DNA of 64,000 nucleotides from Candidatus Pacebacteria bacterium CG_4_9_14_0_2_um_filter_40_15 (GCA_002788675.1 PFRS01000005.1:314635-378634); one strand, 5' to 3'. Numbered from the stretch's first letter, positions 8,195 to 46,770 are shown. Numbers and translations: made by a program. The notes: a model not told the origin generated them from the sequence alone.

Positions 8195-8361
8195 GATCTA
8201 TAACAATTATTATCTTAACGAAGAATATGCTACACTCAGCATTTATGCAACGTACAAAATCCCTGTGTACAAGCCAAATATAGTTTCTTGAGTTTTGAAT
8301 AATAAACCCATAACTTATTTTTCTAAAACCCTCGGCTTTTACAGAACTCATGTGTTAGGGT

Positions 8362-8859
8362 ATGATATGGAGTATGTATCTTCACGATGTTTTAAAAAAA
8401 TACTTGCCAATACTTTTGATAAAAATAAGGTACCCCGGCACTCAGGTGGGATCACACTTTCAATGCTCAAAAAACTTCACTATTTTTCATGGTCAGAAAT
8501 CAGTACGTATCGGAAACCATTGCAATCTTGTTGATGCGCTCATTAACGCAGGCGACTCGTCAACAGTTTCCATCGGCGATTATGTTTTCTTTGGTCATGG
8601 AGTAAAACTTCTTGGCAGAGGCCATGATCTCAGATATAAGAATCAAAAACGTCAAACAACTATAACTGAAAAACCCATAACCATTGGAAATGGTGTTTGG
8701 ATCGCAACTGGTTCGACTATCTTAGGAGGAATAACTATAGGTGACCATGCAGTAATTGCAGCAGGAAGTATTGTGACTAAGAACGTTCCTCCAAACACAC
8801 TTGTAGCAGGTATCCCAGCTAAAGTCGTTAAAAAAATAGAGTTTAAAACAAATACATAG
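8362..8859 (+). CDS. hexapeptide-repeat sugar O-acetyltransferase (LbH family, maltose/galactoside acetyltransferase-like)
   Basis: It has tandem [LIV]-G-x-x-x-x-I hexapeptide repeats (IGNHCNL, IGDYVFF, IGNGVWIATGSTILGGITIGDHAVIAAGSIV) and the C-terminal NVPPNTLVAGIPAKVV. Confidence 0.7.
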   Translation: MIWSMYLHDVLKKYLPILLIKIRYPGTQVGSHFQCSKNFTIFHGQKSVRIGNHCNLVDALINAGDSSTVSIGDYVFFGHGVKLLGRGHDLRYKNQKRQTTITEKPITIGNGVWIATGSTILGGITIGDHAVIAAGSIVTKNVPPNTLVAGIPAKVVKKIEFKTNT

Positions 8860-9096
8860 TTACTTAACTGTATACCCCAACTTTGTTATCACGCCCTTAA
8901 GTTCATCTTCAGAAACCTTGGTCTTATCAAACTCAATCTCTGTTACTCCAGTCGCATAGCTAGTTGTAGCACTTGATACACCTGCAGTATCCTCAAGCTC
9001 TCCATCGATATTCATACTACAACTGGTGCAATGCATACCATCAACTTTCAACCTAATCTTTTCTCCACTTTGCTTTTTGTTTAAAAATGAAAACAT
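8860..9096 (-). CDS. copZ: copper chaperone CopZ (HMA domain)
   Basis: It carries the GMHCTSCS metal-binding motif (GMxCxxC) in a ferredoxin-like fold of about 70 aa. The start is set at MFSF. Confidence 0.75.
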   Translation of the reverse strand: MFSFLNKKQSGEKIRLKVDGMHCTSCSMNIDGELEDTAGVSSATTSYATGVTEIEFDKTKVSEDELKGVITKLGYTVK

Positions 9097-9107
9097 AGTT
9101 GCCTTTC

Positions 9108-10238
9108 TTATTTTACTTCCATTACTCCAGTATACATTCCCATTGAACAAGTAAAGGTAAATTTGCCTTTTGAAGTTGGTGTAAAAGTAAATGTCTGTGC
9201 ATCAGTGGCCTTAAGATTTGCAGAAATATTAAATTCTTTAAATATAAATGAAAGCGCACACGAATACGTTCCATTACTCTGCACTGTCAGTTCAACTGGA
9301 ACCCCTTGCTTTACTGTCACGTAATTTGGACTGTATCCCTGATTCACTGCGTTGATGGTAACCTTTTGCACTCCATTTACTACTTGTGCCATGCCACTTC
9401 CAGCTCCATTTGATTCTGCAAATCGGTCACTAGAAAAGAAATAGGTAACTGGGCGAACTATCTTGCTCAGCGTAATCGGTGCATCAGTAACAATCAGGAC
9501 CCCGTTCACAGAGTACAGCGCCATACCAATCAGAACAACAGAAGCAATCTTCGTAAATTTTTGATACCAACCTTCAGAGAGTTTTGCTGTAGCTACACCA
9601 ATTACAGCAAAAAGTGGAACGGTACCAAGCACAAAGGTACCTAAAATAAGTGCTCCACTGATTGGATTACCCGAGTTTATCGCAAGCACTTCCATTGCCT
9701 GAGTGACTCCACAAGGAATAAACACAGTGAGTAACCCGAGCAGCGCTGGGGCAAATAAGGCCTTGCTCTTACTAGAATTGCGAATATATCGCTGCAAAAA
9801 TTTAGGTGGCTGAAATGCAACATATCTAAAAATAGGATGGACATCAAGCAAATTCATTGCCGTCGCAAACATGAAAAATGCTGTGAAAATTTGGAAAAAT
9901 AACCGCACTTCTAAAGATAAAGTAATTGCGGATCCAAGCAGACCTAACATAAATCCTAAAATCACATGAGCCACAAATTTACTCAGTAGGAACATGCCCA
10001 CTGGCATCCAATCTAGCTCGTCGAATGAATCAAGACTAAATAGCGCCGATCGCTTTTGAAGAGCTTTTACATATGCAGCCTTCTTTTTTTCTTTTAGCTG
10101 TTTTTTGTCATTCACAATAGCTTCGTGCTCTTGATCCTTTTGGTTAGCAATTACACTTGCTAATAGTCCACCCTGCATTGCAGCACATGCGATTCCACCT
10201 GTAGTTAAACCAGTAATAAATATCAAAAATAAATTCAT
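9108..10238 (-). CDS. membrane protein with multi-TM permease-like domain fused to C-terminal cupredoxin-like domain (copper-resistance associated)
   Basis: About 6 to 8 TM helices with conserved Cys and Gly are followed by a C-terminal beta-rich domain (VKQGVPVELTVQSNGTYSCALSF...FTFTCSMGMYTGVMEV) that resembles cupredoxin_1. The gene lies between copA and copZ. Confidence 0.45.
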   Translation of the reverse strand: MNLFLIFITGLTTGGIACAAMQGGLLASVIANQKDQEHEAIVNDKKQLKEKKKAAYVKALQKRSALFSLDSFDELDWMPVGMFLLSKFVAHVILGFMLGLLGSAITLSLEVRLFFQIFTAFFMFATAMNLLDVHPIFRYVAFQPPKFLQRYIRNSSKSKALFAPALLGLLTVFIPCGVTQAMEVLAINSGNPISGALILGTFVLGTVPLFAVIGVATAKLSEGWYQKFTKIASVVLIGMALYSVNGVLIVTDAPITLSKIVRPVTYFFSSDRFAESNGAGSGMAQVVNGVQKVTINAVNQGYSPNYVTVKQGVPVELTVQSNGTYSCALSFIFKEFNISANLKATDAQTFTFTPTSKGKFTFTCSMGMYTGVMEVK

Positions 10239-10250
10239 AGAGACTGTTCC

Positions 10251-12497
10251 TTATACTAATCTTGTTCTTTTAAGTCTGAGTGCATTTGCCACCACACTTA
10301 CACTTGAAAATGCCATTGCTGCTCCAGCCAACATAGGATTAAGTACTACTCCAAAAATCGGATACAATGCCCCCATCGCAACTGGTATTAACACAATGTT
10401 ATATCCAAAGGCCCAAAATAAATTTTGTCGAATGTTACTCATCGTTGCTTTTGAAAGCTTAATAGACGTCGGGACTAAATTCACATCACTACGCAGCAAC
10501 GTGATGCCAGCAGACTCAATTGCCACATCGGTACCACCACCCATGGCGATGCCAACATCTGCAGTTGCCAAAGCAGGGGCATCATTTATGCCATCACCGA
10601 CCATAGCTACATATTCATATTCTGTTCTTAGGTTACGAATTGCTTCCTCTTTTTGATGGGGAAGTACTTCTGAAAGTACTTGTGATATCCCAGCTTGTTT
10701 TGCAATAGCTTGAGCTGTTTTTTCACTATCCCCCGTTATCATTACACTTGCTATACCCATCTCTGATAGTTCTAAAATCATAGCAGCTACATTTTCTTTA
10801 AGCGTATCTGCAATGCTAAATACTGCCGAGAGCTGCCCATCGATTGCCATGAAGACAACCGTATGTCCTTTTGCGGAATACTCAGCAAAGAAATCCTTTG
10901 CATCTTCGGAAACCGCAACCATATTTTCATGTAGATGTTTCATGTTTCCAATAAGAACTGAAGCCTTACCCACAAATGCTTCCACACCTTTCCCACTCAC
11001 ATCTTTAAATGCTGATATTTTCAATGCAGTTTTATTCTCCATTTTTTTAGCTGCATAATCTGCTAAGGCACTAGCCAAAGGATGGTGTGATTTTTCTTCA
11101 ACCCCGTGAAGGATACTCATAAGTTTTTTCTCTTCAGAATAGACTTTTTCAGCAACAACTATGGGTTTACCTTGGGTCAGTGTACCAGTCTTATCAAACA
11201 CTATGGCTTTAACTTTATTTGCAACCTCAAGAGCATTGGCATCTTTAATAAGAATGCCAAGTGAAGCACCTCTGCCCATCCCCACCATAAGTGATGTTGG
11301 CGTAGCCAAACCCAATGCACAAGGACAAGCAATAATGAGCACATTAATCATACTAACGAGTGCTCGAATAAATCTAGGCTCCGGCCCAACAACCAACCAA
11401 GTAACAAACGTTAGTACAGATAAGATGATAACAACAGGTACAAAATATGCAGCAATGACATCAACCAGTGCTTGAATTGGTGGACGTGATCCTTGTGCCT
11501 GCTTAACCAAGGTGATAATTGATGCCAACATGGTGTCACTCCCAACCTTTGTGGCCTGCATCTCTATACTGCCTGATTCATTTATGGTTGCACCAACAAC
11601 AGTGTCACCAATTTTCTTCGTAACTGGGAAGCTTTCACCCGTTATCATACTTTCATCTATAGAAGTTTCACCAGACATAACGACACCATCTACTGGCACT
11701 TTTTGGCCTGGTTTAACCAGAATAATATCACCCACAATAACCTCTGTAATTGCTGTTTCAATCCAAGTGCCACTTTGCTTCACGAGCGCAGTTTTGGGTT
11801 GTAATCCGAGTAACTTCTTAATTGCTGATGACGTTTGTGCCTTCGCCCTAATCTCTAAATATTTACCAAGTAAAATAAAGGAAATAATTGCGGCGGAAGC
11901 CTCAAAGTACACATGCGTTTCTATGCCACTGAGCACAAACCAATCGGAGAAAAGCGTCACAACAGTTGAGTAAGTAAATGCGACAAATGTTCCAAGAGTA
12001 ACAAGTGTATCCATGTTGGCTGTTTTGTTTTTTAGACCTGACCATGCACCCTTGAAGAAGCGTCTGCCTGCCCAGAATTGCACAATCGCAGACAAAAACA
12101 TGGCGAAGTATGGGTTATGTAGCTGAGAGGGTATAAATGGCATCATAAGACTCATGAGCACGATTGTGATACCAAGACTAACCAATAATTGTTGTTTTAA
12201 TTGCTTAAGTTCGATTGTGCGTTCTTTTTCGGCTAAATCACCTGCCGCATCATCATCCATATGTGCTGTATATCCTGCTTTTTTAACTGCCTCAGAAATT
12301 CTTTGTGTATTTATTTTTTCACCTGCAAATACTACCGTCGCTTGCTCATTTGCATAATTAACATTGGCGTCAGAAACTCCCGGTGTTTTTTTAAGTGAAC
12401 GTTGAATAAGGCTGGCACAACTTGCACAGTGCATTCCAGATACGTGAAATGACAGTGACTCTCCTTTTTGTGTGTTGTTTGGTTTACTTTTGGACAT
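10251..12497 (-). CDS. copA: copper-translocating P1B-type ATPase
   Basis: It has an N-terminal HMA motif (GMHCASCAS), the CPC motif in TM6 ([12 protein letters not shown]), the phosphorylation site FDKTGTLT, and the GDGINDAP hinge. Five antisense ORFs inside it are rejected. Confidence 0.9.
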
Positions 12498-28702: not shown

Positions 28703-29155
28703 TTACAAATAATCATCGATCTTAATTTTCTTTTGCTGCATCAATATCTGAAATGAGTTTGGTCTCTGCATGAGTTCTTCTATATTTTCAGGAACAATTT
28801 GCCAACTCAAACCGTATGTATCTTTACACCAACCACACTGCTCAGAATCAGGATGTGCAGAAAGTTTACTCCAATAGTAATCTATCTCTGATTGGTCTTT
28901 ACAAAACACAGCAAAAGATACCGCTTCAGTAAATTTGAATTCGTCACCTGCATTTATAGCGGTAAAGGCCTGACCATTTAATTCAAAATCGATTGTTAAC
29001 ACCTTACCCGCAAATTCCTTTTGAAAATCTGCTAGGCCTTCTTCAGGATAGTAAACAGTACTAATAACTTTACTATCCTTAAAAACTGATGTGTAAAATT
29101 CTACGGCTTCTTGAGCATTTCTTGAAAACCACAAGTTGGGAATAATTTTTTTCAT
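28703..29155 (-). CDS. VOC-superfamily protein, PhnB/3-demethylubiquinone-9 3-methyltransferase-like domain
   Basis: The N-terminus IIPNLWFSRNAQEAVEFYTSVF is characteristic of the PhnB-like family, and the length is about 150 aa. Confidence 0.6.
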   Translation of the reverse strand: MKKIIPNLWFSRNAQEAVEFYTSVFKDSKVISTVYYPEEGLADFQKEFAGKVLTIDFELNGQAFTAINAGDEFKFTEAVSFAVFCKDQSEIDYYWSKLSAHPDSEQCGWCKDTYGLSWQIVPENIEELMQRPNSFQILMQQKKIKIDDYL

Positions 29156-29177
29156 ACTTTTAACCCTTTCAATGGAT

Positions 29178-29528
29178 TTATTTTCTTAAAATTTTTTCAA
29201 TTGTTTTACCTTTTGCCAACTCATCTATCAACTTATCCAAGAAACGGATCTCTTTCATTAGTGGTTCTTTAATTTCTTGTATTTTTACACCACATATACT
29301 ACCTGTAATCAAAAACCTAGAAGGATTTAATTTTGTTGCTTGTTTAAAAAAAGTCTCGAAGTCTGTTTGTTTTTTTATGTGAGCATCCAGATCATGTTGA
29401 GAGTAACCTGTTAACCAGGTAATAATCTCATCTACTTCTGATTTAGTTCTTCCTTTTTTCTCAACTTTTGCAATATAAAGTGGATACACACTGGCAAAAC
29501 TCATTGTATAAATTCTTTGTGAAGTCAT
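29178..29528 (-). CDS. DUF2200-family protein
   Basis: [39 protein letters not shown] matches my recollection of the DUF2200 family consensus. Confidence 0.5.
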
Positions 29529-29588
29529 AGTATGGTATATCCTTTTTTTGAATTATCAGTTTATAAATAGTTATTCGGCTAGAGCTAT

Positions 29589-29969
29589 TTATGCTTCAAC
29601 TTCAACAACAAAACCACCATATGCCATTTTTTTCATATCAAATGGCATTTGAAAATCTTTGTATTCTGAGGCATTTTCACCCATCTCTTCCATGACTTTA
29701 GCATTAACTTGATCCCGATGTTCTTTTGACTTAAACACTATAAATGAAAACCAAACCGATTCACTGTTTTTTGCGCCTGCCATTTCTGTAAATGAGCGTG
29801 ATTTTTCCTCACCCATTTCTTGTGCAGCCATGTCATCTCCACGACACTCATAATATTCTAATGCACCATGCTTCATCCAGGAATCTCTGCCATCTTCGGC
29901 CATTTTTTTATATTCTTCAGATTTGTCTTTTGGGACTACTAATACGAATCCATCAATATATTTTGACAT
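29589..29969 (-). CDS. DUF1428-family protein
   Basis: YIDGFVLVVPKDKSEEYKKMAE...GALEYYEC at the N-terminus and a C-terminal YGGF are typical of DUF1428. Confidence 0.55.
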   Translation of the reverse strand: MSKYIDGFVLVVPKDKSEEYKKMAEDGRDSWMKHGALEYYECRGDDMAAQEMGEEKSRSFTEMAGAKNSESVWFSFIVFKSKEHRDQVNAKVMEEMGENASEYKDFQMPFDMKKMAYGGFVVEVEA

Positions 29970-30146
29970 ATTTGCCTTCCGAATAGTTTACTTTTATGAA
30001 AGTATATCAGAAGTTTAAGCGTCCACTGCGTGGTATTACACCTACTTGAAGAAAAAAGTATTGCTGAGTATCTGGAACAATTGTGGTATTATTGGCTCAC
30101 AGCTATAGAGGAAATTAGAAACTGTTTTACCTGAAAAAATTGAAAA

Positions 30147-30428
30147 CTATGATTTGTTTTTCCCAGTGAGAATAAGTGTGTCTGAGGCGTCGTTGTGAAC
30201 TTTTCCACTACCGACATGTTTACTGCTGATTTTTGAACCGTTCTTAATGACATGAAACAATGCCATGCCATGTCCACGACCCAGCTCATACTCATCTTTT
30301 AGCCAAGTAAGTACTTCGCTTGCTTTAGTACTTTTACCAAAACCTTTCAGTTTAGCTTCATCTAAAAGCTGTTGTGGAGTTTTACCTGTTTTTTCTTCAA
30401 TTTTATCTAGGTATGCTTGAAACGACAT
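30147..30428 (-). CDS. DUF4287-family protein
   Basis: MSFQAYLDKIEEKTGKTPQQLLDEAKLKG is the recognisable DUF4287 N-terminus. Confidence 0.5.
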   Translation of the reverse strand: MSFQAYLDKIEEKTGKTPQQLLDEAKLKGFGKSTKASEVLTWLKDEYELGRGHGMALFHVIKNGSKISSKHVGSGKVHNDASDTLILTGKNKS

Positions 30429-31047: not shown

Positions 31048-31344
31048 CTATTTCTTCCAGATCTTTTTTACTTCTTTATTAGATTTTTTTGCAGCATCAG
31101 CTGTTTGTTCTAATTTTGATTTACTATCAGCGACTTGATCATTAGCTGTCTTCATATAAGTTGAAGCCTTTGCTTTTACGTCATCGACAATTTCTTTAAC
31201 CTTTTCTTGATTTTTATTATTTCTCATTGCCACTACTCCTGCAGCAACCACACTAGCGCCGACAACGGCTCCAGTGACAGCAGCGACGACTGTATTTGAA
31301 ACATTCTTTAGGTCATCCGATTTTTTTTGTTTAGTATTAGTCAT
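31048..31344 (-). CDS. YtxH-like membrane-anchored protein
   Basis: An N-terminal Ala/Gly/Val-rich TM segment (VVAAVTGAVVGASVVAAGVVA) is followed by a charged helical tail. Confidence 0.35.
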   Translation of the reverse strand: MTNTKQKKSDDLKNVSNTVVAAVTGAVVGASVVAAGVVAMRNNKNQEKVKEIVDDVKAKASTYMKTANDQVADSKSKLEQTADAAKKSNKEVKKIWKK

Positions 31345-31376: not shown

Positions 31377-31598
31377 TTATTCTATAGGGTTAGCTGGAGC
31401 ATCAACATTTACCTGTGGAGCCTCGACATTTATTTCTGGGGTTGGTACATTTACCTGGATTACTCTCCTGCTTTGCAATGCAGGAATCCCATACGTAACT
31501 AGTAAACCCAAGGAAACTATCAAGAAAACTACTACAATGATGAAGCCAAATCCACCAGAGTTTTGCTGTGGTGCTGGGTTATTTACAACTGTTGCCAT
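31377..31598 (-). CDS. small hypothetical membrane protein
   Basis: 73 aa with one TM helix. Confidence 0.3.
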   Translation of the reverse strand: MATVVNNPAPQQNSGGFGFIIVVVFLIVSLGLLVTYGIPALQSRRVIQVNVPTPEINVEAPQVNVDAPANPIE

Positions 31599-31715: not shown

Positions 31716-32375
31716 TTAAAGATTTTTTGTGCTAATGAGTTCTTGCTCTAACTTGGCAATATTACTAAAAATCATGTTATGATCGACAAATTCAACTAAT
31801 TTTTTTTGGGCTAATTTACCTAACTCAATACTAACTGTTTCTCTAGCGACCCCAACTAACGAGGCAATATCTTGATGAGTGAAACGATGCTGTACAATTA
31901 TTTTAGTCCCATTTTTATTACCAAAATAGGTAGCCAGGTAGAGTAGAACGGAAATAACTCTCCTGTACGCATCACTAAAAACTAAGTGTTCGATTCTTGC
32001 GAGTGATTCTTCATAGCGTCTGAGTAGTTCACACATTAGCTCAGAAATTAAATCTGGCTTGTTTTTAATAAACTCCAAGACCTGATTCTTTGGAGCTCTA
32101 CCAATCTCAACAGGTGTAAGTGCCTCATAAAAATATACGTTTGGCGTATTGTTGAAAGCCCATACCATGGGGAAATAGGAAATAGGTTGCAGAATATGTA
32201 AAGTTAATTCTTCACCAGTATGCGAAATAATATATTGGCGAACATATCCTTTAGTGAGGCAAAAAATACCTTGAGGGTCATCATCCGCCCTGATCAGCAT
32301 TTCTCCTTGTTTATACAATCGCAGTTGAAACTGAGAAAAAAATTCTTCAAATACTTTGGTTTTACTTTTATTCAC
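31716..32375 (-). CDS. Crp/Fnr-family transcriptional regulator
   Basis: A cNMP-binding-like beta-roll is followed by a C-terminal HTH (RFTHQDIASLVGVARETVSIELGKL). Confidence 0.7.
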   Translation of the reverse strand: MNKSKTKVFEEFFSQFQLRLYKQGEMLIRADDDPQGIFCLTKGYVRQYIISHTGEELTLHILQPISYFPMVWAFNNTPNVYFYEALTPVEIGRAPKNQVLEFIKNKPDLISELMCELLRRYEESLARIEHLVFSDAYRRVISVLLYLATYFGNKNGTKIIVQHRFTHQDIASLVGVARETVSIELGKLAQKKLVEFVDHNMIFSNIAKLEQELISTKNL

Positions 32376-32529: not shown

Positions 32530-33426
32530 CTAATCTTTCAAAGATGATATATCAATGCTTTCGGAAATATCACCTGGGTTTAAATCTAATTGAAAATATT
32601 GACTTCCGTCACTGCCTTTTGAATTTATTTCTATTTCTAAATTAACTGGCTTCTCATTAATAGTGATAAAAAGATAGTCATTGAAAAAAAATGCACCTTG
32701 CTCAGGCTTGATTTCAGAAATATCACAGCTTGCAAGTCTGTCAGAACATTGAATGTTTGTTCTGTAATTTCTAGTAATGTCAATATTAGGTAAAAATGAA
32801 GACAATCCCATTAAATAATTGTCACAAGTCGGCGTAGGTTTTTCTGGTAAATTTAAATCATAAATAGAGTCCTTAATATATCCCTCTGAAAGCCTTGCAT
32901 TTATTGATATACGTTCATCGTACCTATCTGAGTTAACCTTTAGCATAAAACAAATAGTATTTTTACCACTCTTGAAATATGAGTCCAATCTTTCAATATA
33001 ATCTTGAAGCAATTCGATGTAATCGGCTACATCTTGCCTTGATTTAATTCCATCAAAAGGAAATCTGATTAATGGATTAACTAAATTTGGTAGTTCTTCT
33101 TCCAATTCTTGAATCTCATCTTTAATTGCCCGCACTGTCTCTTCGGCTGTTAACTTATAAAAACTTGCATCTATTTCAAACTTTGTAGTTGAGTTTTTAC
33201 TCTTTTCATTTGCAATATATTCTTTTCTCCACACATTATATATGGATATAAAAACAATGATTATTAAATAATAATTAGTCAGACTTTTGGGTAAAGTATA
33301 TGCGTCACCATTGCTGATATAAACAGAAATAAAATCATAAACAGATGGGAGCAACAATGCCAAATTTGACCACTGCAAAAAAACTCTACTGATAAATATG
33401 TAAATTTTAATAATTTCTTTCTTCAT
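32530..33426 (-). CDS. hypothetical membrane protein, last gene of island cargo operon (possible effector)
   Basis: 298 aa with two N-terminal TM helices (LALLLPSVYDFISVYI and YYLIIIVFISIYNVW), then a coiled coil and an Asp/Ile-rich C-terminal domain. Its start overlaps the upstream gene's stop (ATGA), which implies translational coupling. Confidence 0.45.
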   Translation of the reverse strand: MKKEIIKIYIFISRVFLQWSNLALLLPSVYDFISVYISNGDAYTLPKSLTNYYLIIIVFISIYNVWRKEYIANEKSKNSTTKFEIDASFYKLTAEETVRAIKDEIQELEEELPNLVNPLIRFPFDGIKSRQDVADYIELLQDYIERLDSYFKSGKNTICFMLKVNSDRYDERISINARLSEGYIKDSIYDLNLPEKPTPTCDNYLMGLSSFLPNIDITRNYRTNIQCSDRLASCDISEIKPEQGAFFFNDYLFITINEKPVNLEIEINSKGSDGSQYFQLDLNPGDISESIDISSLKD

Positions 33427-35249
33427 AATTTCTCAAGTTCATTTTTCAAAAAATAGGCAGCAGACATGTGGTTTTTTGCAATGCTTTTATCTAAATCTCT
33501 ACTTAGCACTCTCTTACTTCTTCTTTCTATATCTCTGCTCAATCTATGTTTTAGTTCAATTAAATTTTCATTTTCTGTTCCTTCAAACTTAAACTTTAAA
33601 AAATGACATCCAGTGATTACATATACCTTTTCATCCAATCCTGCTTCCTCTTGGCTTTCCCACAAAGCTTTTGGGAAAGGTGCGCTCATATTTATTGTCT
33701 TATTAAAAAATAACTTAGCTACATTTACAGCATCAGTATTTTTTACAGATTTAACTGTTCCAATATAAGTTGATGCGCCCCCGTAAATGAAATTACTTGA
33801 AAGCACATGATTTGAGATGCAAGCATTATTAAAAACAAAAGGAAAGGACTCTGGGTCAGACAAACTTGAAAATGATGGAATAAAGTTCTTTGAAACTCCT
33901 TTTGTAACTATTACATTACAATAATTTACGTTTTTCACTTTTCTCTGTTTTAAAACTTTCCAATCTTTTCTCTTCAACTTTGAGAACTCTGACACTATTT
34001 TTTTCGATGAACCCGGTTTATAAGTTTTCTCATACCATGGGCTTCCATCTAACTCTACAAATTCATAGAAGCTTTTAACATTAATTATGGCATCTTCACC
34101 TGTCCCAAAACCTGTGGGTTCGAAGGAATCTATAGCATCAACCACTATGACATGCTCACAGCCTCTACTATCAACAAACTGTATATCAAACCTTTGACCT
34201 TCTGGAAGTCCTCCATGACTACATATAAACAATAAATCGTAGGGATAAAACTGAATAGAATTGCTTAATTCGTAGTTTGTAAATTGATTATCCCAAAACT
34301 CTTTGGTAATAACTTCTTTTTGAGCCAACAAGTCACTCACATCATCTGTTTCAGAATCAGAAAAGAATCCAGTATCTACGAGAAGCGCTGATTTCACGAT
34401 TATTTCAGGGTTTGCTATTGATTCAGCGATAAAGTAGCCAGGCATTATTCGTCCTAAAATATGAGTTGATGCAATATTAGGATAGAAATAACCATAAGGA
34501 ATTTCATCAGTATAAAATGTCACAAAATCATAAGCTTCGATTTCACCAAAGTCCGCATCTAGCTCTGATTTTATACTTGCATTAATTTCTCTAGCTACAT
34601 CGCCTCTCGCTTCATTTGAATCATTATCAAAAATCAAAGCGGCAATTTCTTTAGAGGAATATTCTAAATCTGTTTGTATGAATTTAATATCAGCGTTAAT
34701 GGAAAACGCATAGTTAGCAACTATGACAGGAGACAACTCATCATCAATATCGTAATAAACACAATGCTTACTTGTTTGTTTAAATGAATATTTATAATTA
34801 GCTTTATTCGTAATTACCAATCTTTGTTTGTTCTTTTTTGCTATTAAAAGTGCTTGAGCAACTTTCTGTTTTTCTGGCTCACATTCTAAATTCCCCTCAA
34901 ACACAATATTCATTGGTTCTGCGATTTCCGACTTTATTTGAGATTTTTTTGTTACTGTTATGTATCTTTCTTCTGGAATTCGCAATTGGTCTTTGATGAT
35001 TTTAATGTATTTAGGATTAACACCCGCAAAAATACATATCTCAGGCCTAATCTTAGCCAAAATATTGTTTAGCTTTATTAATTCGTTACTCCAGTCATCT
35101 CTCAAAAACCTTGGTAATTCAAAAACACAAAAATAATCATTTGGTTCATAAAAACAACTTGATATTTGAGCAGCTAATATATGGTTCCCACTTATACATA
35201 TAACTTTATTTTTTATTGTCGGTGCGTTATCTGAATAGCTATGCATCAA
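33423..35249 (-). CDS. large hypothetical protein with caspase/CHAT-like His-Gly and Ala-Cys motifs (tentative protease)
   Basis: 608 aa. LLFICSHGGLPEG has the hydrophobic-x-S/G-H-G pattern of caspase-fold His. About 130 aa downstream, FVFNNACISN has the hydrophobic-A-C-x-S pattern of the caspase-fold Cys. There is no P-loop. The function is inferred only from these motifs. Confidence 0.4.
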   Translation of the reverse strand: MMHSYSDNAPTIKNKVICISGNHILAAQISSCFYEPNDYFCVFELPRFLRDDWSNELIKLNNILAKIRPEICIFAGVNPKYIKIIKDQLRIPEERYITVTKKSQIKSEIAEPMNIVFEGNLECEPEKQKVAQALLIAKKNKQRLVITNKANYKYSFKQTSKHCVYYDIDDELSPVIVANYAFSINADIKFIQTDLEYSSKEIAALIFDNDSNEARGDVAREINASIKSELDADFGEIEAYDFVTFYTDEIPYGYFYPNIASTHILGRIMPGYFIAESIANPEIIVKSALLVDTGFFSDSETDDVSDLLAQKEVITKEFWDNQFTNYELSNSIQFYPYDLLFICSHGGLPEGQRFDIQFVDSRGCEHVIVVDAIDSFEPTGFGTGEDAIINVKSFYEFVELDGSPWYEKTYKPGSSKKIVSEFSKLKRKDWKVLKQRKVKNVNYCNVIVTKGVSKNFIPSFSSLSDPESFPFVFNNACISNHVLSSNFIYGGASTYIGTVKSVKNTDAVNVAKLFFNKTINMSAPFPKALWESQEEAGLDEKVYVITGCHFLKFKFEGTENENLIELKHRLSRDIERRSKRVLSRDLDKSIAKNHMSAAYFLKNELEKL

Positions 35250-35252
35250 TTT

Positions 35253-35924
35253 TTAATCCTGTCTCTCTTGCCAAGGGGCTATATTGCTCTCCCCAGTTTC
35301 TTCTGTTCTTACTTCTCTAGGACTAATGACCTCTTTACTAAAAACAATATCTGGTAAATCATATTTCTTATCGTATTCAAATGCCTCTTTTCCAACGTTA
35401 ATTTCAAAAACAGATGTTGTGGGGTTTACTACAACCAACTCAGCAATTGTATCCGGGTGGTTTCTCACATTCCTAACTGCCCATATTGGATAATCTATTA
35501 ACTTCTCATTTGCATACTTCTTTATCTCTTCATAATCAACACCATCTGTAGTAAATAAATGTACAAGCATCAAATATTCTGAAGAATAAGCTCCGCTCAA
35601 TTTCCTAGTCCTAATGAGCTGTTCAAGCAAAGACTCTTTAGATTTACGATAGCTAGTTAATTCAATAGTGGTTATATCCATTGACACACCATTTGGCTGC
35701 ATGAGATATGCATCTGGCGGGTCTTGCAGCGGCATTCGTAGATAAGTTGGCAAACCTCTAATTTTACTCAACACAAACGCTGCTATTGCAGCAATTCTAG
35801 ACTCTCTGACTACCTTATTCTCAGGTTTTATTAAAGCCCCAACACCTTGCTCCTGTTCAAATTTTTGAATATGCATGAATGTGTTTGTCGGAGAATGCCA
35901 TCTTTTATTAAATTGTCTTTTCAT
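35253..35924 (-). CDS. hypothetical protein (island cargo operon)
   Basis: 223 aa with no recognisable motif. It is tightly packed between neighbours, with a 4-nt gap to the downstream gene. Confidence 0.4.
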   Translation of the reverse strand: MKRQFNKRWHSPTNTFMHIQKFEQEQGVGALIKPENKVVRESRIAAIAAFVLSKIRGLPTYLRMPLQDPPDAYLMQPNGVSMDITTIELTSYRKSKESLLEQLIRTRKLSGAYSSEYLMLVHLFTTDGVDYEEIKKYANEKLIDYPIWAVRNVRNHPDTIAELVVVNPTTSVFEINVGKEAFEYDKKYDLPDIVFSKEVISPREVRTEETGESNIAPWQERQD

Positions 35925-36023
35925 CTTGATTTTATTGTATCAAAATAAAACATTTATAATAAAATGGATTTATGATATTGACTGGCGATTTATTAATTCT
36001 GATTTAAGGTAGTGCTTCTAACA

Positions 36024-36836
36024 CTATCCCTTAGCAATTGCGTCAGCCCAACTGTATTTATCATCTTTGTAAATCTTTTTCATTTTTCTATCAAAATCTC
36101 TCCAATTTTTTACCAACTCTGGCATCTCAATCTTTTGTTCGTGAGGAAGTCCTATATCTGCATTGAAATTTAGCGGATTAATTTGAAAACCATTTTTTGT
36201 AACTAGTGCAATCTGCAAATGTTTGCTCACACCCGGATGAGGATTTCTAAAAACATCGTATGACAATACAACTCCCAATACCTGTGCGTAACCAAATTGA
36301 TTTCCTACCTCCATCTGCATAAGCTTCTCAGGCTCACTATGAATTCTTTCCAAATCATCTAGATAGACTTGCTTATTGTTACCACTTCCAATCGATAAAG
36401 GACTATGCACCCTTGAAGCTTCATACTCAAAACTGGGTGCTTTTAACTTCGCTACAAAAGACTTTGGTTGTCCTTTACTCCCATTATCTGCTATAGGGTC
36501 TACTGCAACTATAATCATGGAGAACGGTCTTTTCTTTTCTTCAGGAAGCTTTGAGTATAGTTCTTTCGCCCTTTTACCCCACTCTCTGGCTAATTGGTCA
36601 GGAATCCATCCTCCTTTACTCCTGGATGACATAAAGTCCCTTAAGGCTTGAGTAAACATAAACCCTGTTTCTATATCACCACTAAAACCAGACATAGCAA
36701 ACTCACCTACTGGATATATTTTTTGAACAACATCATGGAAATCTTCTTTACCATCAGGGAAAGATACAGTAGCTTGAACATCAGAGATTAAAACACCATA
36801 GCCAAACATTGTAGGAATACCAATAACCCAAGTCAT
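36024..36836 (-). CDS. proteasome beta-subunit/Anbu/HslV-like Ntn-hydrolase (Thr1 peptidase family), putative
   Basis: The N-terminus MTWVIGIPTMFGYGVLISDVQATV has Thr at position 2, which would be the nucleophile once Met is removed. It continues as hydrophobic-G...GxVL(I/A)(S/A)D..(A)T with Asp about 17 residues after the Thr. QKIYPVGEFAMSGFSGDIETG then parallels the proteasome SKIhhI.....hGsGAGD block around Lys33. The length is 270 aa. Confidence 0.5.
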   Translation of the reverse strand: MTWVIGIPTMFGYGVLISDVQATVSFPDGKEDFHDVVQKIYPVGEFAMSGFSGDIETGFMFTQALRDFMSSRSKGGWIPDQLAREWGKRAKELYSKLPEEKKRPFSMIIVAVDPIADNGSKGQPKSFVAKLKAPSFEYEASRVHSPLSIGSGNNKQVYLDDLERIHSEPEKLMQMEVGNQFGYAQVLGVVLSYDVFRNPHPGVSKHLQIALVTKNGFQINPLNFNADIGLPHEQKIEMPELVKNWRDFDRKMKKIYKDDKYSWADAIAKG

Positions 36837-36870
36837 ATACCAATTATAACCCGAAAATAATTATTGCGAT

Positions 36871-37179
36871 TTAAGAACTTAAGTATTGCTCTTTACACTC
36901 TTTGCGAAGATTATCTCTGCCGTTTGATGTTGCATCATATAATCTTGTGCAATCTTCTCCCTCAAGTCCATTATTCTCACAAGCTCTAGGAAGTGCTTCT
37001 ATGTTGTTAGAGTACCATTCTTCAGCTTTACCTAAGCAGGATTCATATTGTTCCTGTCTGTCTTTTAGAGCCTCTTCCTCTTTAATTTTATCCTGTCTCC
37101 ACATAATGAATATTCCTAATATCGTGAACGAAATTATTAATGCTGCGATTACAAGTGAATTTATTTTTTTCATATTCAT
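36871..37179 (-). CDS. small membrane-anchored Cys-rich protein, first gene of cargo operon
   Basis: An N-terminal TM helix (LVIAALIISFTILGIFIMW) is followed by a charged domain with four cysteines. Confidence 0.4.
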   Translation of the reverse strand: MNMKKINSLVIAALIISFTILGIFIMWRQDKIKEEEALKDRQEQYESCLGKAEEWYSNNIEALPRACENNGLEGEDCTRLYDATSNGRDNLRKECKEQYLSS

Positions 37180-37191
37180 ATTTTACTATGA

Positions 37192-37215
37192 ATACTGCGT
37201 TGTTGCATACTGCGG
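37192..37215. promoter_or_regulatory. direct repeats ATACTGCG x2 in divergent promoter region between cargo operon and XRE gene (candidate operator)
   Basis: ATACTGCG occurs at 37192..37199 and again at 37208..37215, inside the 54-bp intergenic region between divergently transcribed genes. Confidence 0.3.
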
Positions 37216-37233
37216 AATAGTCAAGAATTACTC

Positions 37234-37455
37234 TTGATGGAAGAAAAGCAAAAAGTAACAGAACTAGTGGGAGATGAAATTCGAAAACACAGAGAAGAAT
37301 CTGGTCTTTCGCAGGAAGAACTTTCAGCAAAAGCTGGTTTATATAGAACCTATGTTGGTCATGTAGAAGTAGGTCGTTACACACCTTCAATCTATACTCT
37401 CTTCAAGATAGCCAGAGCTCTCAAAGTTAAAGTCTCAGAAATAATACCCTTTTAG
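37234..37455 (+). CDS. XRE-family helix-turn-helix transcriptional regulator
   Basis: The HTH_3 core is LSQEELSAKAGLYRTYVGHVEVGRYTPSIYTLFKIARALKV. Confidence 0.7.
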   Translation: MMEEKQKVTELVGDEIRKHREESGLSQEELSAKAGLYRTYVGHVEVGRYTPSIYTLFKIARALKVKVSEIIPF

Positions 37456-38670: not shown

Positions 38671-38836
38671 TAAATCAGTAATCAGCCTCCAGCAAGTCAT
38701 GAACGAAGATGGTTTACATCTAAACCAAGAAGAGACAAGGTCTCTTGGTGAGTTGTTAGTCAGTATAGGACTTCAATTAAAAATGAGTATTAAAAATAAT
38801 AATGAATATGAAAATAAAAACACAAAGCGTAGTTGA
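38648..38836 (+). CDS. hypothetical small protein
   Basis: A 62-aa ORF that overlaps its neighbours. Coding status is uncertain. Confidence 0.2.
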   Translation: MGGLMLSNKSVISLQQVMNEDGLHLNQEETRSLGELLVSIGLQLKMSIKNNNEYENKNTKRS

Positions 38837-39644
38837 TACTGCACACTATTTTCTATCACAACGAGTAAGCATTATTCCTGTCACAAAAGACAAGAAGCCG
38901 TATGCAGGGTTTAGTTGGGATGCATATAAAAAACGCTTTCCCACTCAGGATGAAATAGATATCTGGTTTAGATATGTATATCCAAATGCAAATTTAGCCA
39001 TAGTAACTGGAGCGCTTTCAAAACTAATAATACTAGATATAGACCCCAGAAATGGTGGTGATATATCTTTGTTAAAAAACAATAAAAGCCCATCAGTTTC
39101 AACACCAAACAATGGAAAACACATATATTTCAGACCAACTAACCTTGTAAAATCTGCCAAGCATAGTGCACTAGGATATGACCTACTCTATGAAGCTTTA
39201 GCTCTTGTCCCGCCCTCCCTTACAGTAAATGGTGCATATGAATGGATAAACTCATTTAATAGAAATAACATAGAAGAGTTTCCAAAATATTTACTTAGCA
39301 AGCTAGAACTCATTCAACCTAAACAGAATGAAGCTTCTGCCAAACCACTTAGTCAAAAAAAAGGCAATCAAAAAACTCAGTTAAGAGGTATTGAGGTTAG
39401 GCACGCACGAGATTATCCCCTAGATAGATTGCTATTAAGTGATGGTGTAAATCTCATCCAACGAACAAATAGCTACCACCTTACCTGCCCATTTCATAGT
39501 GATAGGAAGTCTTCAGCTGTTTACTATCCATCCACCAACTTGGTTTATTGCTTCAAATGTTCAAGAGCATTTAATCCAATTGATTACCTAACGATAGCAA
39601 AAGGTTATTCATTCAGGGAAGCCTTAAAGGAATTAACAGAATGA
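38802..39644 (+). CDS. bifunctional primase-polymerase (Prim-Pol) N-terminal domain protein with CHC2 zinc finger
   Basis: The N-terminus IPVTKDKKPYAGFSWDAYKKRFPTQDEIDIW...NLAIVTG...LIILDID matches the Prim-Pol pattern (PVxxxKxP....W.......#....W......NhGhhhG...hhhhDhD). The C-terminal CPFHSD...CFKC is a CHC2 DnaG-type zinc finger. Confidence 0.6.
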   Translation: MNMKIKTQSVVDTAHYFLSQRVSIIPVTKDKKPYAGFSWDAYKKRFPTQDEIDIWFRYVYPNANLAIVTGALSKLIILDIDPRNGGDISLLKNNKSPSVSTPNNGKHIYFRPTNLVKSAKHSALGYDLLYEALALVPPSLTVNGAYEWINSFNRNNIEEFPKYLLSKLELIQPKQNEASAKPLSQKKGNQKTQLRGIEVRHARDYPLDRLLLSDGVNLIQRTNSYHLTCPFHSDRKSSAVYYPSTNLVYCFKCSRAFNPIDYLTIAKGYSFREALKELTE

Positions 39645-40175: not shown

Positions 40176-41780
40176 ATGAAAGATAATATGAACAATAAAA
40201 ACATAGCTGCACTCTGGTGCAGAGTAAGCAGTCCAGACCAAGAAACTTCTGGGTATTCACTACCTGCTCAGGAAGAACTTTTAAGAGAGTACGCTACACG
40301 AAAAGGAATTCAAAAGGTTGATTTTTTCTCTGTTTCAGAAAGTGCTAAATCTAGTCAAGTAAGAGCAAGTTTTAAAGAGCTGTTCAGCCATGTAAAAAAA
40401 CATAACATCAATATAGTAATTTGCGAAAAAGTTGACAGATTAACCAGAAACTTTTACGACATGATAATGATTGATGAATGGCTTGAGAAAGACCATGAAA
40501 GAGAAATACACCTCGTAAAAGATTCGCTAGTTCTTCACGCTGGCTCTCGTTCTCAGGATAAATTAAATTGGAACTTAAAAGTTTTATTAGCAAAAAATTA
40601 CATTGATAATCTCAGAGAGGAAGTTAAAAAGGGTCAACTGATGAAACTCAAGCATGGCTGGCTACCAACTAGACCTCCATATGGTTATAAAACTGAAGGA
40701 AACAAGGGGCACAAAATTCACGTCATAGATAATGAAACTGCACCAATTGTAAAGAAACTCTTTCAACTCTACTCAACTGGCAACTACTCACTTAAAGCCA
40801 TTACAGAAAAAGCAAATGAGCTTGGTTTAAGAAGTTCAAAGGGTAATCCAGTTGTTAAAAGTAGAATACACAAACTGCTTCAGGATAAGTTCTACATTGG
40901 CATTAATATTTGGAATGATACTGAGTATCCTGGTAAACAAGAAACATTCATCGAGGAAGAATTATTCTACCTGGTGAAGAGGGTTATGAAAGGTGGCTTT
41001 AACAATACACGCACTTACTCAAAGCATAACTATCTTTTTAGAGGAATGTTTAAGTGTGAACACTGTAAAGGCACAATCACCTGGGAAGAACAGAAAGGTA
41101 TTGTGTATGGTCACTGCAACCACTACAAACCATGCCCCTCAAAAGATTGGGCTCGTGAAGATTCTGTCGAAAAGCAAGTTAAAAAGTCATTAAAGTCACT
41201 GGTAATAAAAAACAAGCGAGTATTAAACTGGCTAAGAGATGAACTGAGCACACGCATTCATGAAGAAACTGATGTATATGTAGCTTCAATAGAACAACTT
41301 AAAAAAGACTTAGTGCTCACTGAAAGGGCTCAAGAGCGACTCTATGATGACAAGCTTTATGAACGTATCCCTGAGTCAATGTATGACCGAAAGGCAAATG
41401 AGTTTAAGAATAAGACTAAGAAGCTAGAGAAACAAATAAAGGAGCTCTCTGGTGGCACTGATAAAGCTAGACAGGTCGGACTAAGTATCTTTGACCTTGC
41501 ACAAGGTGGTCATATCATTTATGAAAAAGCTGATATTGAGAAACGTCAGCTACTTTTAAAACTGGTATATAAAACAAGAGAAATTTTCGAGGATACTTGT
41601 AGCTTAGAGTATACGGAAGAAATGGCATTACTATTGAAAGCAGTCAACCAGACTAATCGTTCGAAACTGGTGAAAAAAGTTGAGAAAATGGAAGCTACTT
41701 TCGAACCATCTGAAAAGATTGATTTAGCAAGAAAAAGTGACTCTTTTATGTCCTTGCGGACTGGTTTGCTCCCCCGGTAG
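40176..41780 (+). CDS. large serine recombinase (integrase)
   Basis: It has a resolvase-type catalytic domain whose nucleophile Ser lies in LWCRVSSPDQ and a conserved DRLTRN. A recombinase domain follows, then a zinc-ribbon (CEHCKG...GHCNHYKPC) and a C-terminal coiled coil. Its stop codon at 41778..41780 lies inside the tRNA-Asn 3' end. Confidence 0.85.
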   Translation: MKDNMNNKNIAALWCRVSSPDQETSGYSLPAQEELLREYATRKGIQKVDFFSVSESAKSSQVRASFKELFSHVKKHNINIVICEKVDRLTRNFYDMIMIDEWLEKDHEREIHLVKDSLVLHAGSRSQDKLNWNLKVLLAKNYIDNLREEVKKGQLMKLKHGWLPTRPPYGYKTEGNKGHKIHVIDNETAPIVKKLFQLYSTGNYSLKAITEKANELGLRSSKGNPVVKSRIHKLLQDKFYIGINIWNDTEYPGKQETFIEEELFYLVKRVMKGGFNNTRTYSKHNYLFRGMFKCEHCKGTITWEEQKGIVYGHCNHYKPCPSKDWAREDSVEKQVKKSLKSLVIKNKRVLNWLRDELSTRIHEETDVYVASIEQLKKDLVLTERAQERLYDDKLYERIPESMYDRKANEFKNKTKKLEKQIKELSGGTDKARQVGLSIFDLAQGGHIIYEKADIEKRQLLLKLVYKTREIFEDTCSLEYTEEMALLLKAVNQTNRSKLVKKVEKMEATFEPSEKIDLARKSDSFMSLRTGLLPR

Positions 41781-41840
41781 GATTCGAACCTACAACCTAC
41801 CGGTTAACAGCCGGGCGCTCTGCCATTGAGCTACAGGGGA
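41769..41840 (-). tRNA. tRNA-Asn (anticodon GTT), CCA not encoded
   Basis: A hand-folded cloverleaf on the minus strand has a 7-bp acceptor stem (UCCCCUG/CGGGGGA), a D-arm (GCUC-AAUGGCA-GAGC), the anticodon loop CUGUUAA, a T-arm (GUAGG-UUCGAAU-CCUAC) and discriminator G. Confidence 0.8.
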
Positions 41841-46149: not shown

Positions 46150-46770
46150 GCTACAGAAAACCCCAGGCTTTCAAGCCTGGGGATGAATGGCAGTTGAGGC
46201 GAAAGCCGAAACTGCTATCTTGTATACTTGATGCATGACTAGAAAATACTGGACGGGAGCTCATACAACACATCGGTTGAGATTTCATATAGTTCTTTTA
46301 CCAAAATACCGCAGGAGAGTGCTCAAAGGCAAAATAGCTACTAGAATAAAGCAATTGTTCTATCAGGCGTGCCAGATGAATAAGTGGTGGATAGATGAAA
46401 TAAATCTCCAGCCAGATCACCTACACATGTTAATCCAGATAAAACCAAGGGAATCAGTGTCAAGTGTGGTGCAGTTACTCAAGGGAGGGAGTAGTAAGGT
46501 GATCAGGGTAGAGTTTCCAGATTTGGAAGAATATTTATGGGGAGATAGTTTTTGGTCAGATGGCTATTTTGCCGAAAGTGTGGGAACAGTAAACGAAGAA
46601 ATAATTAAGCAGTATATTAAAAACCAACATGCAGCAAGTATTGAGGGCGATTAGCCCTCATGCATGAAGCTCCGGCTTTTAAGCCGGAGAGACTGTTCAC
46701 TTTATATGCATCTAACATACTCAATGAAGTGCTGGTACCATTTGCGCCAGGCATTCTGCCTGGCGCAAAC
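46150..46770 (+). mobile_element. IS200-type insertion sequence (IS200/IS605 family, tnpA only); extent approximate
   Basis: The Y1 HuH transposase gene is flanked by subterminal perfect hairpins. On the left is ccccaggc-tttcaa-gcctgggg at 46161..46182. On the right are gagggc-gatta-gccctc, ctccggc-ttttaa-gccggag at 46670..46689, and gcgccaggca-ttc-tgcctggcgc at 46744..46766. Confidence 0.6.
46235..46654 (+). CDS. tnpA: IS200/IS605-family Y1 transposase TnpA
   Basis: The HuH motif is HLHMLI, and a conserved N-terminal H is present (HRLRFHIVLLPKYRR). The catalytic Tyr is in WSDGYFAESVG. Confidence 0.85.
   Translation: MTRKYWTGAHTTHRLRFHIVLLPKYRRRVLKGKIATRIKQLFYQACQMNKWWIDEINLQPDHLHMLIQIKPRESVSSVVQLLKGGSSKVIRVEFPDLEEYLWGDSFWSDGYFAESVGTVNEEIIKQYIKNQHAASIEGD

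Follow-up and report, generated by a model that had tools for sequence, protein, structure and literature searches.

The DNA analyzed here (the window, 64,000 nucleotides of a Candidatus Pacebacteria genome) carries five consecutive minus-strand open reading frames, which we designate A to E in the order of transcription, and an XRE-family regulator gene transcribed divergently from gene A (Table 1), just where a sequence-only reading of the same stretch had placed them. The genes are closely packed, with intergenic gaps of 34 nt between A and B, 99 nt between B and C and 3–6 nt between C and D, and the ATGA overlap described for D and E is confirmed by direct reading. No terminator-like site is present in any of the A–E gaps, the sole site of this type on the minus strand lying inside gene C. 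We infer that A to E are cotranscribed, and the close packing and the lack of terminator-like sites in the gaps mean that B may be coexpressed with D in this host. Three further contigs (L117–L119, from three samples) were aligned, and in each of them the cassette is 100% identical. Twenty-three contigs of the organism carry gene B and were read, and 21 share one arrangement of A to E: the three aligned contigs and 18 more judged by having the same neighboring genes. Because these copies are identical and derive from one population, they carry no information on selection acting on A or C.

Table 1. Genes and other features of the cassette and its surroundings (positions counted from the first nucleotide of the window)
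Feature	Coordinates	Strand	Description
Gene E	32530..33426	minus	ORF, 298 aa, two N-terminal hydrophobic segments
Gene D	33423..35249	minus	ORF, 607/608 aa, predicted clan-CD cysteine protease
Gene C	35253..35924	minus	ORF, 223 aa
Gene B	36024..36836	minus	ORF, 270 aa, predicted HslV/proteasome-beta-like Thr-Ntn hydrolase
Gene A	36871..37179	minus	ORF, 102 aa
Two CGCAGTAT copies	37192..37214	minus	XRE/A intergenic region, candidate operator
XRE-family HTH gene	37234..37455	plus	73 aa, divergent from gene A, PF01381 HTH_3 (E=7.8e-15)
PrimPol + CHC2 zinc-finger primase	38802..39644	plus	PF09250 (E=9e-17), PF01807 (E=1e-11), PHROG primase families
Large serine recombinase	40176..41780	plus	Resolvase, Recombinase and Zn_ribbon_recom domains
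tRNA-Asn (GTT)	41768..41840	minus	ARAGORN; Rfam tRNA 69.6 bits

The proposed placement of the cassette on an integrative element is supported by its surroundings. The 3′ end of the large serine recombinase gene overlaps the 3′ end of the tRNA-Asn gene, which marks a boundary of the element, and the element also encodes PrimPol, a DnaD-like protein and DUF5659, in a region with a GC content of 0.32–0.36 as against 0.40–0.44 in the flanks. The components of a large-serine-recombinase element, namely the recombinase domains, an adjacent target and a replication/regulation module, are all present. The left boundary and att sites were sought and not found, so the location of A to E inside the element is putative. 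Downstream of D and E, the window is syntenic with another D locus (L002; DUF4287, DUF2200 and 3-dmu-9_3-mt), and these two genes may therefore lie outside the element.

Gene D can be read from a TTG start (608 aa) or from the ATG at 35246 (607 aa), the latter being the start used by gene callers of other assemblies; the NCBI annotation gives 545 aa. Homologues align from about residue 8, favoring the long form. Residues H345 (CSHGG) and C477 (NNACIS), which contain the HG and AC(x)S motifs that had prompted the comparison with caspase and CHAT proteins, are invariant in 48 sequences of the family. In the predicted structure they follow strands 339–343 and 471–474, respectively, and the predicted fold is of the caspase–haemoglobinase type. 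D itself has no match in Pfam; its homologue P0054 reaches 38 bits with CHAT (PF12770), for which the cut-off is 24 (E=1.6e-9), P0036 and P0045 also exceed the threshold, and 31 of the 48 family members match at E<0.1. The identification of D as a clan-CD (CHAT/gingipain/separase-like) cysteine protease with its predicted dyad, His345/Cys477, intact therefore holds. The N-terminal half comprises two flavodoxin-like alpha/beta domains with conserved ANYA, R215, T244, YGY and TH263 and no family assignment, and none of the 48 members matches SAVED or TPR domains. A signal peptide, a propeptide and Ig-like and adhesin domains are all missing from D, which is therefore predicted to be cytoplasmic rather than secreted.

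Caspase-like proteases have several precedents in bacterial immunity, including Craspase (PMC9729208), SAVED-CHAT (bioRxiv 10.1101/2023.06.23.546230), the caspase-like effector of type IV Thoeris (bioRxiv 10.1101/2024.10.24.620036) and the proteases that activate bacterial gasdermins (bioRxiv 10.1101/2021.06.07.447441). D resembles these enzymes (TPR-CHAT Csx29 of type III-E, SAVED-CHAT of type III-B, type IV Thoeris and gasdermin proteases) in its clan-CD fold, where the His and Cys of the dyad follow consecutive strands, in the CHAT matches of its homologues and in its occurrence in mobile or defense-like surroundings beside a possible, changing effector gene. It differs from them in having a locus free of CRISPR, TPR, SAVED, TIR or gasdermin partners and in its unassigned N-terminal domains, and its structurally closest protein is gingipain rather than a characterized immune CHAT protease. 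Membership in Craspase, SAVED-CHAT, type IV Thoeris or gasdermin-protease systems was rejected, none of the defining partners (Cas7-11 with TPR, a SAVED domain with a type III CRISPR locus, a TIR protein or a gasdermin) being encoded in A to E or the flanking genes. Identity to gingipain R/K (peptidase family C25) and separase is only 11–13%; D lacks the secretion and adhesin architecture of the former, and no securin-like partner, as for the latter, is known for D.

Elsewhere, D homologues lie within ∼6 kb of a serine recombinase in eight loci, and their neighbors include type III R-M, a McrB-like protein, NACHT, SLFN_AlbA_2 and DUF1016. Defense genes near D or B homologues are scattered (raw counts of at most 2–3 in 110 per family), and at L043 the D gene adjoins a Glu/Gln-tRNA synthetase, so not every D context is mobile.

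Gene E had been read as a protein with N-terminal transmembrane helices; two hydrophobic segments are indeed present, but they are marginal (Kyte-Doolittle 1.6–1.7) and clearer in an E homologue. E has no family match and no significant PDB match, and no similarity to any known effector was detectable in family models or the PDB. A PDB match to gasdermin-A3 at E=1 is at chance level. An E homologue (36% identity) directly follows the closest D homologue (52% identity) in the same arrangement. Among ∼85 other D loci, E is found only at L002, L003 and L032, such that it follows D in only one other lineage and the pair is known from two lineages in all. In other relatives the coupled slot beside D is filled differently: by a downstream PD-(D/E)XK nuclease gene (PF12705, E=1.4e-15) overlapping by 4 nt at L044, where D is 49% identical, by unrelated 1–2-TM proteins downstream at L048, L035, L104 and L081, and by DUF4238 at L070. 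The logic of a protease acting on a membrane effector, suggested originally for the whole cassette, remains plausible for D and E only and not for the five genes together.

Gene B belongs to a large unannotated family (∼265 aa, 708 clusters) in which nearly all members begin MTW, placing a threonine directly after the initiator methionine. At least 90% of members retain M1 and T2, and no variation is seen among 48 members at D19, K39, F51 and G53; the conserved residues align with GDGQVT, RK and AGFAGS of HslV. The family profile matches 14 distinct HslV sequences from the PDB at E<=0.05 (best E=1.2e-5) with Asp17, Lys33 and GFAGS in register; IGSG aligns only in a weak second segment. B as a single sequence has no Pfam match, and PF00227 is matched weakly by 13 of 48 family members (best E=0.0014, below the Pfam Proteasome threshold). 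Proteasome-fold proteins rank first even when a weak model is used, and the four-layer alpha-beta-beta-alpha Ntn fold of B is putative. With a Thr-after-Met nucleophile and equivalents of Asp17, Lys33 and Gly47 present in the family, the prediction of B as an HslV/proteasome-beta-like Ntn protein is supported, in agreement with the sequence-only reading. Its resemblance to HslV (ClpQ) thus lies in the match of the family profile, the residues in register and the threonine after methionine. B-family proteins nevertheless exceed HslV by ∼90 residues and have a conserved extension at the C terminus, and the family has a patchy, mobile distribution. An AAA+ gene is absent beside B in the window and none recurs in 28 B-family loci; with no adjacent HslU in either set, membership in HslVU was rejected.

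Anbu, like B, is a proteasome-like Ntn protein of ∼250–270 aa without an AAA+ partner. The B-family profile has no match to Anbu PDB chains at E<=10, and ATP-grasp, alpha-E and transglutaminase genes are missing both from the window and from the list of the 25 commonest families for 88 B-family neighbors, bearing out the earlier view that this is not the Anbu operon. B is similar in kind to the 22 uncharacterized proteasome-homologue families (including DPH, RPC, PMI-1 to PMI-6, GPH and WPH) described by Fuchs, Alva and Lupas 2021 (PMC8665760), which are reported there to lack an informative genomic context and an AAA+ partner. Both are orphan proteasome-like proteins with the conserved Thr1/Asp17/Lys33/Gly47 set and no such context or partner; the representative accessions of those families are absent from the B-family accessions recovered, in a comparison by accession only. 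B-family genes are solitary and lie near integrases, IS elements, toxin–antitoxin genes and HEPN genes, also on plasmids. Their neighbors include HEPN/AbiV, SLFN_AlbA_2, relaxase, HigBA and VapBC, and IS3 on Vibrio and Salmonella plasmids; a position after smpB also occurs. Across the 24 genome loci that contain B homologues, no neighboring gene is shared, and homologues of A, C, D and E are all absent. The best reading of B is a predicted stand-alone HslV-like N-terminal-threonine peptidase, lacking an ATPase or any other fixed partner, from a widespread family whose genes travel singly between plasmids and genomic islands.

Genes A and C are provisionally orphans within the sets searched. 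A, described as a small Cys-rich membrane protein, does have one strong N-terminal TM anchor (Kyte-Doolittle peak 2.94 at residues 9–25) but only four cysteines; it has no Pfam, NCBIfam or PADLOC match, and its spanin-like PHROG matches are weak (E>=0.005). C has no match in Pfam, NCBIfam, PADLOC, PDB, plasmids, phages or viral contigs, and homologues of neither gene occur in the 110 loci fetched. B, D and E, by comparison, are real genes because they have homologues elsewhere. In PADLOC, the XRE protein matches the “control protein” and capH models. Homologues of it (33–41% identity) lie near D homologues in about seven CPR-type loci, and XRE genes accompany D in six to nine loci, a recurrence that belongs to the recombinase element's own module. 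Within that control module, the XRE protein is probably the repressor of the leftward cargo transcript. Two copies of CGCAGTAT, with starts 15 nt apart in the 54-nt XRE/A intergenic region, are a candidate operator.

The sequence-only reading presented the five genes as a candidate defense or abortive-infection operon under an XRE regulator; in one system of this kind, the Ntn and caspase-fold proteases would act in a single pathway, for example a proteolytic cascade, ending at the membrane proteins. Same-strand packing with gaps of 3–99 nt free of terminator-like sites, and the constant arrangement on the contigs of this organism, are what such a system would display, and bacterial immunity does include proteolytic cascades, such as that of SAVED-CHAT acting on PCaspase (bioRxiv 10.1101/2023.06.23.546230). 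However, the B and D families never occur together in about 85 other D loci (where B absence was judged with the B profile) and 28 other B loci (∼113 in total), and no homologue of A or C occurs in either set. Each family is usually found without the other and with variable neighbors, E accompanies D in just the one other lineage, and the identical copies from one population have no comparative weight. A single conserved system is quite improbable, and in the loci examined the five-gene cassette was not conserved in other genomes, the B and D families occurring separately. The claim that no described system is represented stands, as no PADLOC-DB v2 defense model matches A to E at E<=1. The best reading is a cargo of two independent modules, C-D-E and B (possibly with A).

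What these modules do is a separate question. D-E, B or both could serve the element itself, as an addiction (post-segregational killing) module or a weapon against rival elements in which the protease controls a toxic membrane protein. In eight loci D lies at the far end of a serine-recombinase element; this position, the HigBA, VapBC and IS elements beside B on plasmids and chromosomes, and the adjacent XRE-type regulator all point this way. Yet no antitoxin-like partner was identified, the stretch examined around many of the D and B homologues contains neither recombinase nor plasmid genes, and by sequence such a module is indistinguishable from abortive infection. We regard this explanation as unlikely. 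Housekeeping or regulatory proteolysis seems to us quite improbable: here B would replace HslV-type quality control in a reduced CPR genome, and D would be a regulatory or processing protease acting on the membrane protein E, in the manner of separase or of the CHAT anti-sigma factor DdvA. A Crp-family regulator and a sigma-70 gene do lie nearby, and the window and L002 share part of their gene order downstream of D-E. Against this, both families are patchy across distant phyla, with variable neighbors near integrases, recombinases and IS elements, B occurs on plasmids, B has neither HslU nor another AAA+ partner as a neighbor in any locus, and regional GC is low.

We tentatively favor, at somewhat less than even confidence, a reading in which the cassette is the cargo end of a small serine-recombinase element at tRNA-Asn, with C-D-E an abortive infection-like module and B standing alone. 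The defense role of C-D-E is one that we infer from context. D would stay inactive until a cue from an invader is perceived, either by its N-terminal domains or via the variable upstream partner C. Once activated, it would cleave and activate the neighboring effector, here E, a putative membrane-associated protein translated from the overlapping start and acting on the membrane, or it may cleave host proteins. The predicted outcome is abortive infection-like growth arrest.

A direct connection between the two modules in this organism, with B or D processing or degrading the other, or C, to arm E, is highly improbable. If true, a proteasome-fold protease would here be used for the first time in an immune or conflict pathway, as would two unrelated protease folds in series. 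In a weaker form of this idea, the solitary B family may itself be a conflict module of a single gene, widespread and based on the proteasome fold. In this CPR genome, a gene for a predicted caspase-fold protease is coupled to a gene for a putative membrane protein, beside a stand-alone proteasome/HslV-like gene.

The cassette comprises five closely spaced minus-strand ORFs, genes A to E, and a divergent XRE regulator gene. This layout agrees with the sequence-only reading apart from small corrections. The gaps are 34, 99, and 3–6 nt, and the D/E overlap, read directly from the sequence, is ATGA. That reading had further proposed that the five genes form one protease-based defense system, with two protease folds and membrane proteins under the XRE regulator. 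This is contradicted by the loci examined for the two protease-like genes, B (HslV/proteasome-beta-like) and D (CHAT/caspase-fold), in which there is no co-occurrence of B with D, nor of A or C with them. We read the locus as stacked cargo, consisting of a C-D-E unit and an independent B, possibly with A. The juxtaposition of B and D is specific to the window's organism, and joint action of the two is unsupported. The assertion that no described system matches has held, as a PADLOC search with A to E gave nothing usable.

Features of the cassette and its surroundings
Feature	Position	Strand	Description
Gene A	36871..37179	minus	102 aa, one strong TM helix
Gene B	36024..36836	minus	270 aa
Gene C	35253..35924	minus	223 aa
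Gene D	33423..35249	minus	608 aa from TTG or 607 aa from ATG at 35246
Gene E	32530..33426	minus	298 aa, two marginal hydrophobic segments
XRE/HTH_3 gene	37234..37455	divergent	73 aa, E=7.8e-15
Octamer CGCAGTAT, two copies	37192..37214	minus	15 nt start to start, in 54-nt XRE/A spacer
Crp/FNR-family regulator gene	31716..32375	minus	cNMP_binding and HTH_Crp_2; 154 nt downstream of E, same strand
Small ORF	31377..31598		membrane-protein-like, after Crp/FNR-family gene
Small ORF	31048..31344		membrane-protein-like, after Crp/FNR-family gene
Small genes left of E	28703..30428		DUF4287, DUF1428, DUF2200, 3-dmu-9_3-mt
Y1 transposase ORF	46235..46654	plus	139 aa, IS200/IS605-type (PF01797 in matching JGI contig)

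The source is a Candidatus Pacebacteria (CPR) genome (locus tags CO156_01610 and CO156_01620). Of the 23 contigs read, 21 had the cassette in the same gene neighborhood; they derive from several samples. The cassette was 100% identical in the three contigs aligned (L117–L119), so that dN/dS is not obtainable from these copies and selection cannot be read from them. Gene D is 545 aa long in the NCBI record, whereas JGI gene calls give 607 aa and alignments of its homologs begin near residue 8 of the 608-aa form; the deposited NCBI start therefore probably lies about 62 codons too far downstream. The octamer repeats in the XRE/A spacer are preceded by a TTGACT hexamer and are a candidate operator for the XRE regulator. 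Scanning for promoters and terminators was uninformative, with fewer promoter-like sites than in shuffled sequence, and an Rfam scan returned tRNA only.

Single-sequence searches with A to E (Pfam, NCBIfam, PADLOC, PHROGs) and with B to E against PDB sequences gave nothing usable. D has 56 homologs, of which the closest (43–52% identity) are from CPR bacteria and the more distant from other phyla. Pfam CHAT was matched by 31 of 48 family members, and three of six homologs scanned singly passed its gathering score (best 38 bits vs. a cut-off of 24). In the 48-member alignment H345 (CSHGG) and C477 (NNACIS) of D are invariant. The acidic residue E300 is invariant as well, a hint that D may be specific for Arg/Lys. 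A D-family profile found no match among PDB sequences, and the fold of D is clear only from the predicted structure. Taken with this model, the invariant residues and the CHAT matches bear out the earlier assignment of D to the caspase-fold/CHAT proteases. Approximately ten homologs of 840–849 aa (in L001 at 8001-10535, L034, and L038; P0006, P0009, P0011, P0013-15, P0017, P0019, and P0024) are extended at the N terminus by ∼240 aa that are mainly helical. We considered this extension as a fused C or E and rejected the idea, as the sequences are unrelated; it is also unrelated to the 470-aa protein neighboring D in L002, another CPR contig. The long form in L001 has no co-oriented partner genes. 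The D family has its own conserved N-terminal domains, without a CRISPR, SAVED, or TIR partner.

Across ∼85 D loci, roughly 70 of them nonredundant, we found no protein matching the B-family profile and no homolog of A or C. Outside the contig of the window's organism, a homolog of E occurs only after the closest D homolog (L002; D 52% and E 36% identical), where it starts 4 nt downstream, so the D-E pairing is known from two lineages. In L044, whose D is 49% identical, a 4-nt overlap joins D to the gene that follows, here one for a PD-(D/E)XK nuclease (PF12705, E=1.4e-15), and elsewhere the tightly linked downstream genes encode unrelated 1–2-TM proteins (L048, L035, L104, L081) or DUF4238. 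The upstream slot is equally variable, holding proteins of 183, 205, 233, and 470 aa, none related to C; the 470-aa protein, in L002, was also ruled out as a relative of B. Neighbors conserved between loci by BLAST clustering and phmmer were limited to the recombinase, XRE, and E, in few loci: a large serine recombinase recurs within ∼6 kb in eight loci and an XRE gene in six to nine. The neighbors of D include type I and type III R-M, McrB-like, NACHT, SLFN_AlbA_2, and DUF1016 proteins. Of 2.9 million contigs in viral collections, 3 carry D and none carries B or C; D is likewise all but absent from plasmids. Phage records gave no match for B or C, and BFVD no structural match.

C-D-E is a tightly coupled unit. 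Its CHAT-type protease stands alone between partner slots whose occupants can be exchanged, a pattern reminiscent of a sensor or activator whose effectors are interchangeable. In characterized bacterial caspase-like systems, a trigger leads the protease to cleave and activate an adjacent toxin or to degrade host proteins (PMC9729208; bioRxiv 10.1101/2023.06.23.546230, 10.1101/2024.10.24.620036, 10.1101/2021.06.07.447441). By analogy, D would most likely be activated in a trigger-dependent manner, the active protease would cleave E, a putative membrane effector, or cellular proteins, and this cleavage would result in an abortive-infection-like arrest; here we infer co-transcription, the trigger, the cleavage of E, and a protective phenotype. 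A role in addiction or in competition between elements, instead of defense, fits the same facts, and sequence alone separates neither from the defensive role.

Gene B as a single sequence had no match in Pfam, NCBIfam, PADLOC, PHROGs, or PDB sequences, and a word-indexed search gave only two relatives. It is no orphan: an exhaustive profile search gave 708 clusters at E≤1e-3, with lengths of 255–275 aa in almost every case. In a 48-member alignment W3, D19, K39, F51, G53, G150, and G152 are invariant and M1 and T2 occur in at least 90% of members, giving an MTW start. The family profile matches 14 distinct PDB HslV sequences (E≤0.05, best E=1.2e-5), pairing SD-VT with GDGQVT (Asp17), QK with RK (Lys33), and GFAGSV with GFAGSV (Gly45-47 region); IGSG pairs with the HslV IGSGG only in a second, nonsignificant segment. 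With the profile matching HslV and the active-site residues in register, the HslV/proteasome-like assignment first suggested for B is supported. Pfam Proteasome was matched weakly by 13 of the 48 members, and a poor AF2 model built from three sequences is weak corroboration only. Unlike HslV, the family has a C-terminal extension of ∼60 aa beyond the Ntn core. In most members a conserved MPxVAxSYxEF segment is followed by a short tail, also conserved, that ends the protein in ...A-[IV]-[AC] (alignment A3). All are annotated "hypothetical protein" in every source, none with a Pfam domain. They resemble the 22 families of orphan proteasome homologs without informative gene context described by Fuchs, Alva and Lupas (PMC8665760); from its sequences, B belongs to an uncharacterized proteasome-like family that may or may not be among those 22.

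The context of B was sampled in 24 genome loci (Acidobacteriota, Oxalobacteraceae, Bradyrhizobium, Anaerolineae, Actinomycetota, Verrucomicrobiota, Omnitrophota, and others), three more with gene calls, and two plasmids. The B homolog was solitary in all of them, commonly with large flanking gaps. BLAST clustering and phmmer revealed no neighbor conserved across these loci, and they contained no AAA+ partner, no homolog of A, C, D, or E, and no caspase-fold protein. Pfam domains among 88 neighbors include phage integrases (3), HEPN (2), AbiV-type HEPN, SLFN_AlbA_2 (2), and a TrwC relaxase, with HigBA, IS3, or smpB beside B in individual loci. A Schlafen/AlbA_2 gene (PF04326, the domain scored twice here) adjoins D homologs (L030 4087-5430; L047) and a B homolog (L112 3997-5286) in unrelated genomes. 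When the cassette proteins were searched against plasmids only B gave matches; the two examined are WP_064487246.1 on Vibrio coralliilyticus p337 (L120 7001-7804) and WP_247594558.1 on Salmonella pRSE21 (L121 7001-8041). The Salmonella protein has 346 aa, and its similarity to B is confined to the first ∼150 (residues 1–152 of the query). The plasmids are large and come from culturable gammaproteobacteria, and the B-family genes on them neighbor IS3 transposases and toxin-antitoxin genes.

Beyond XRE, on its right, the DNA belongs to a small integrative element and encodes a 229-aa unknown, DUF5659, a PrimPol/CHC2 primase, a DnaD-like protein, and a 534-aa large serine recombinase whose gene overlaps tRNA-Asn at its 3' end. 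Together with a GC content of 0.32–0.36 vs. 0.40–0.44 in the flanks, this supports the mobile setting proposed from sequence. The window contained no convincing att repeats, nor was a left boundary found. The small genes left of E recur downstream of D-E in L002 (11247-16145), where no recombinase is nearby; these genes may be shared cargo, or D-E may lie outside the serine-recombinase element. The Y1 transposase ORF, ∼4.4 kb beyond tRNA-Asn, points to further mobile DNA nearby.

The locus thus holds a CHAT/caspase-fold protease with unusual architecture and swappable partners, beside a member of an uncharacterized proteasome-like family. The B family, with hundreds of clusters, no Pfam model, a mobile distribution, and no ATPase partner, is a large group that has been overlooked among the relatives of the proteasome, and it is experimentally accessible because it has members on Vibrio and Salmonella plasmids. 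In bacterial immunity, an executioner role is emerging for caspase-like proteases; to our knowledge, those characterized all rely on CRISPR, SAVED, or TIR as a recognizable sensor or generator of the signal, and we are aware of almost nothing on the conflict systems of CPR bacteria. If D is a self-contained sensor-protease, it would widen the paradigm of caspase-like immunity and offer a tractable entry to the conflict systems of the CPR.
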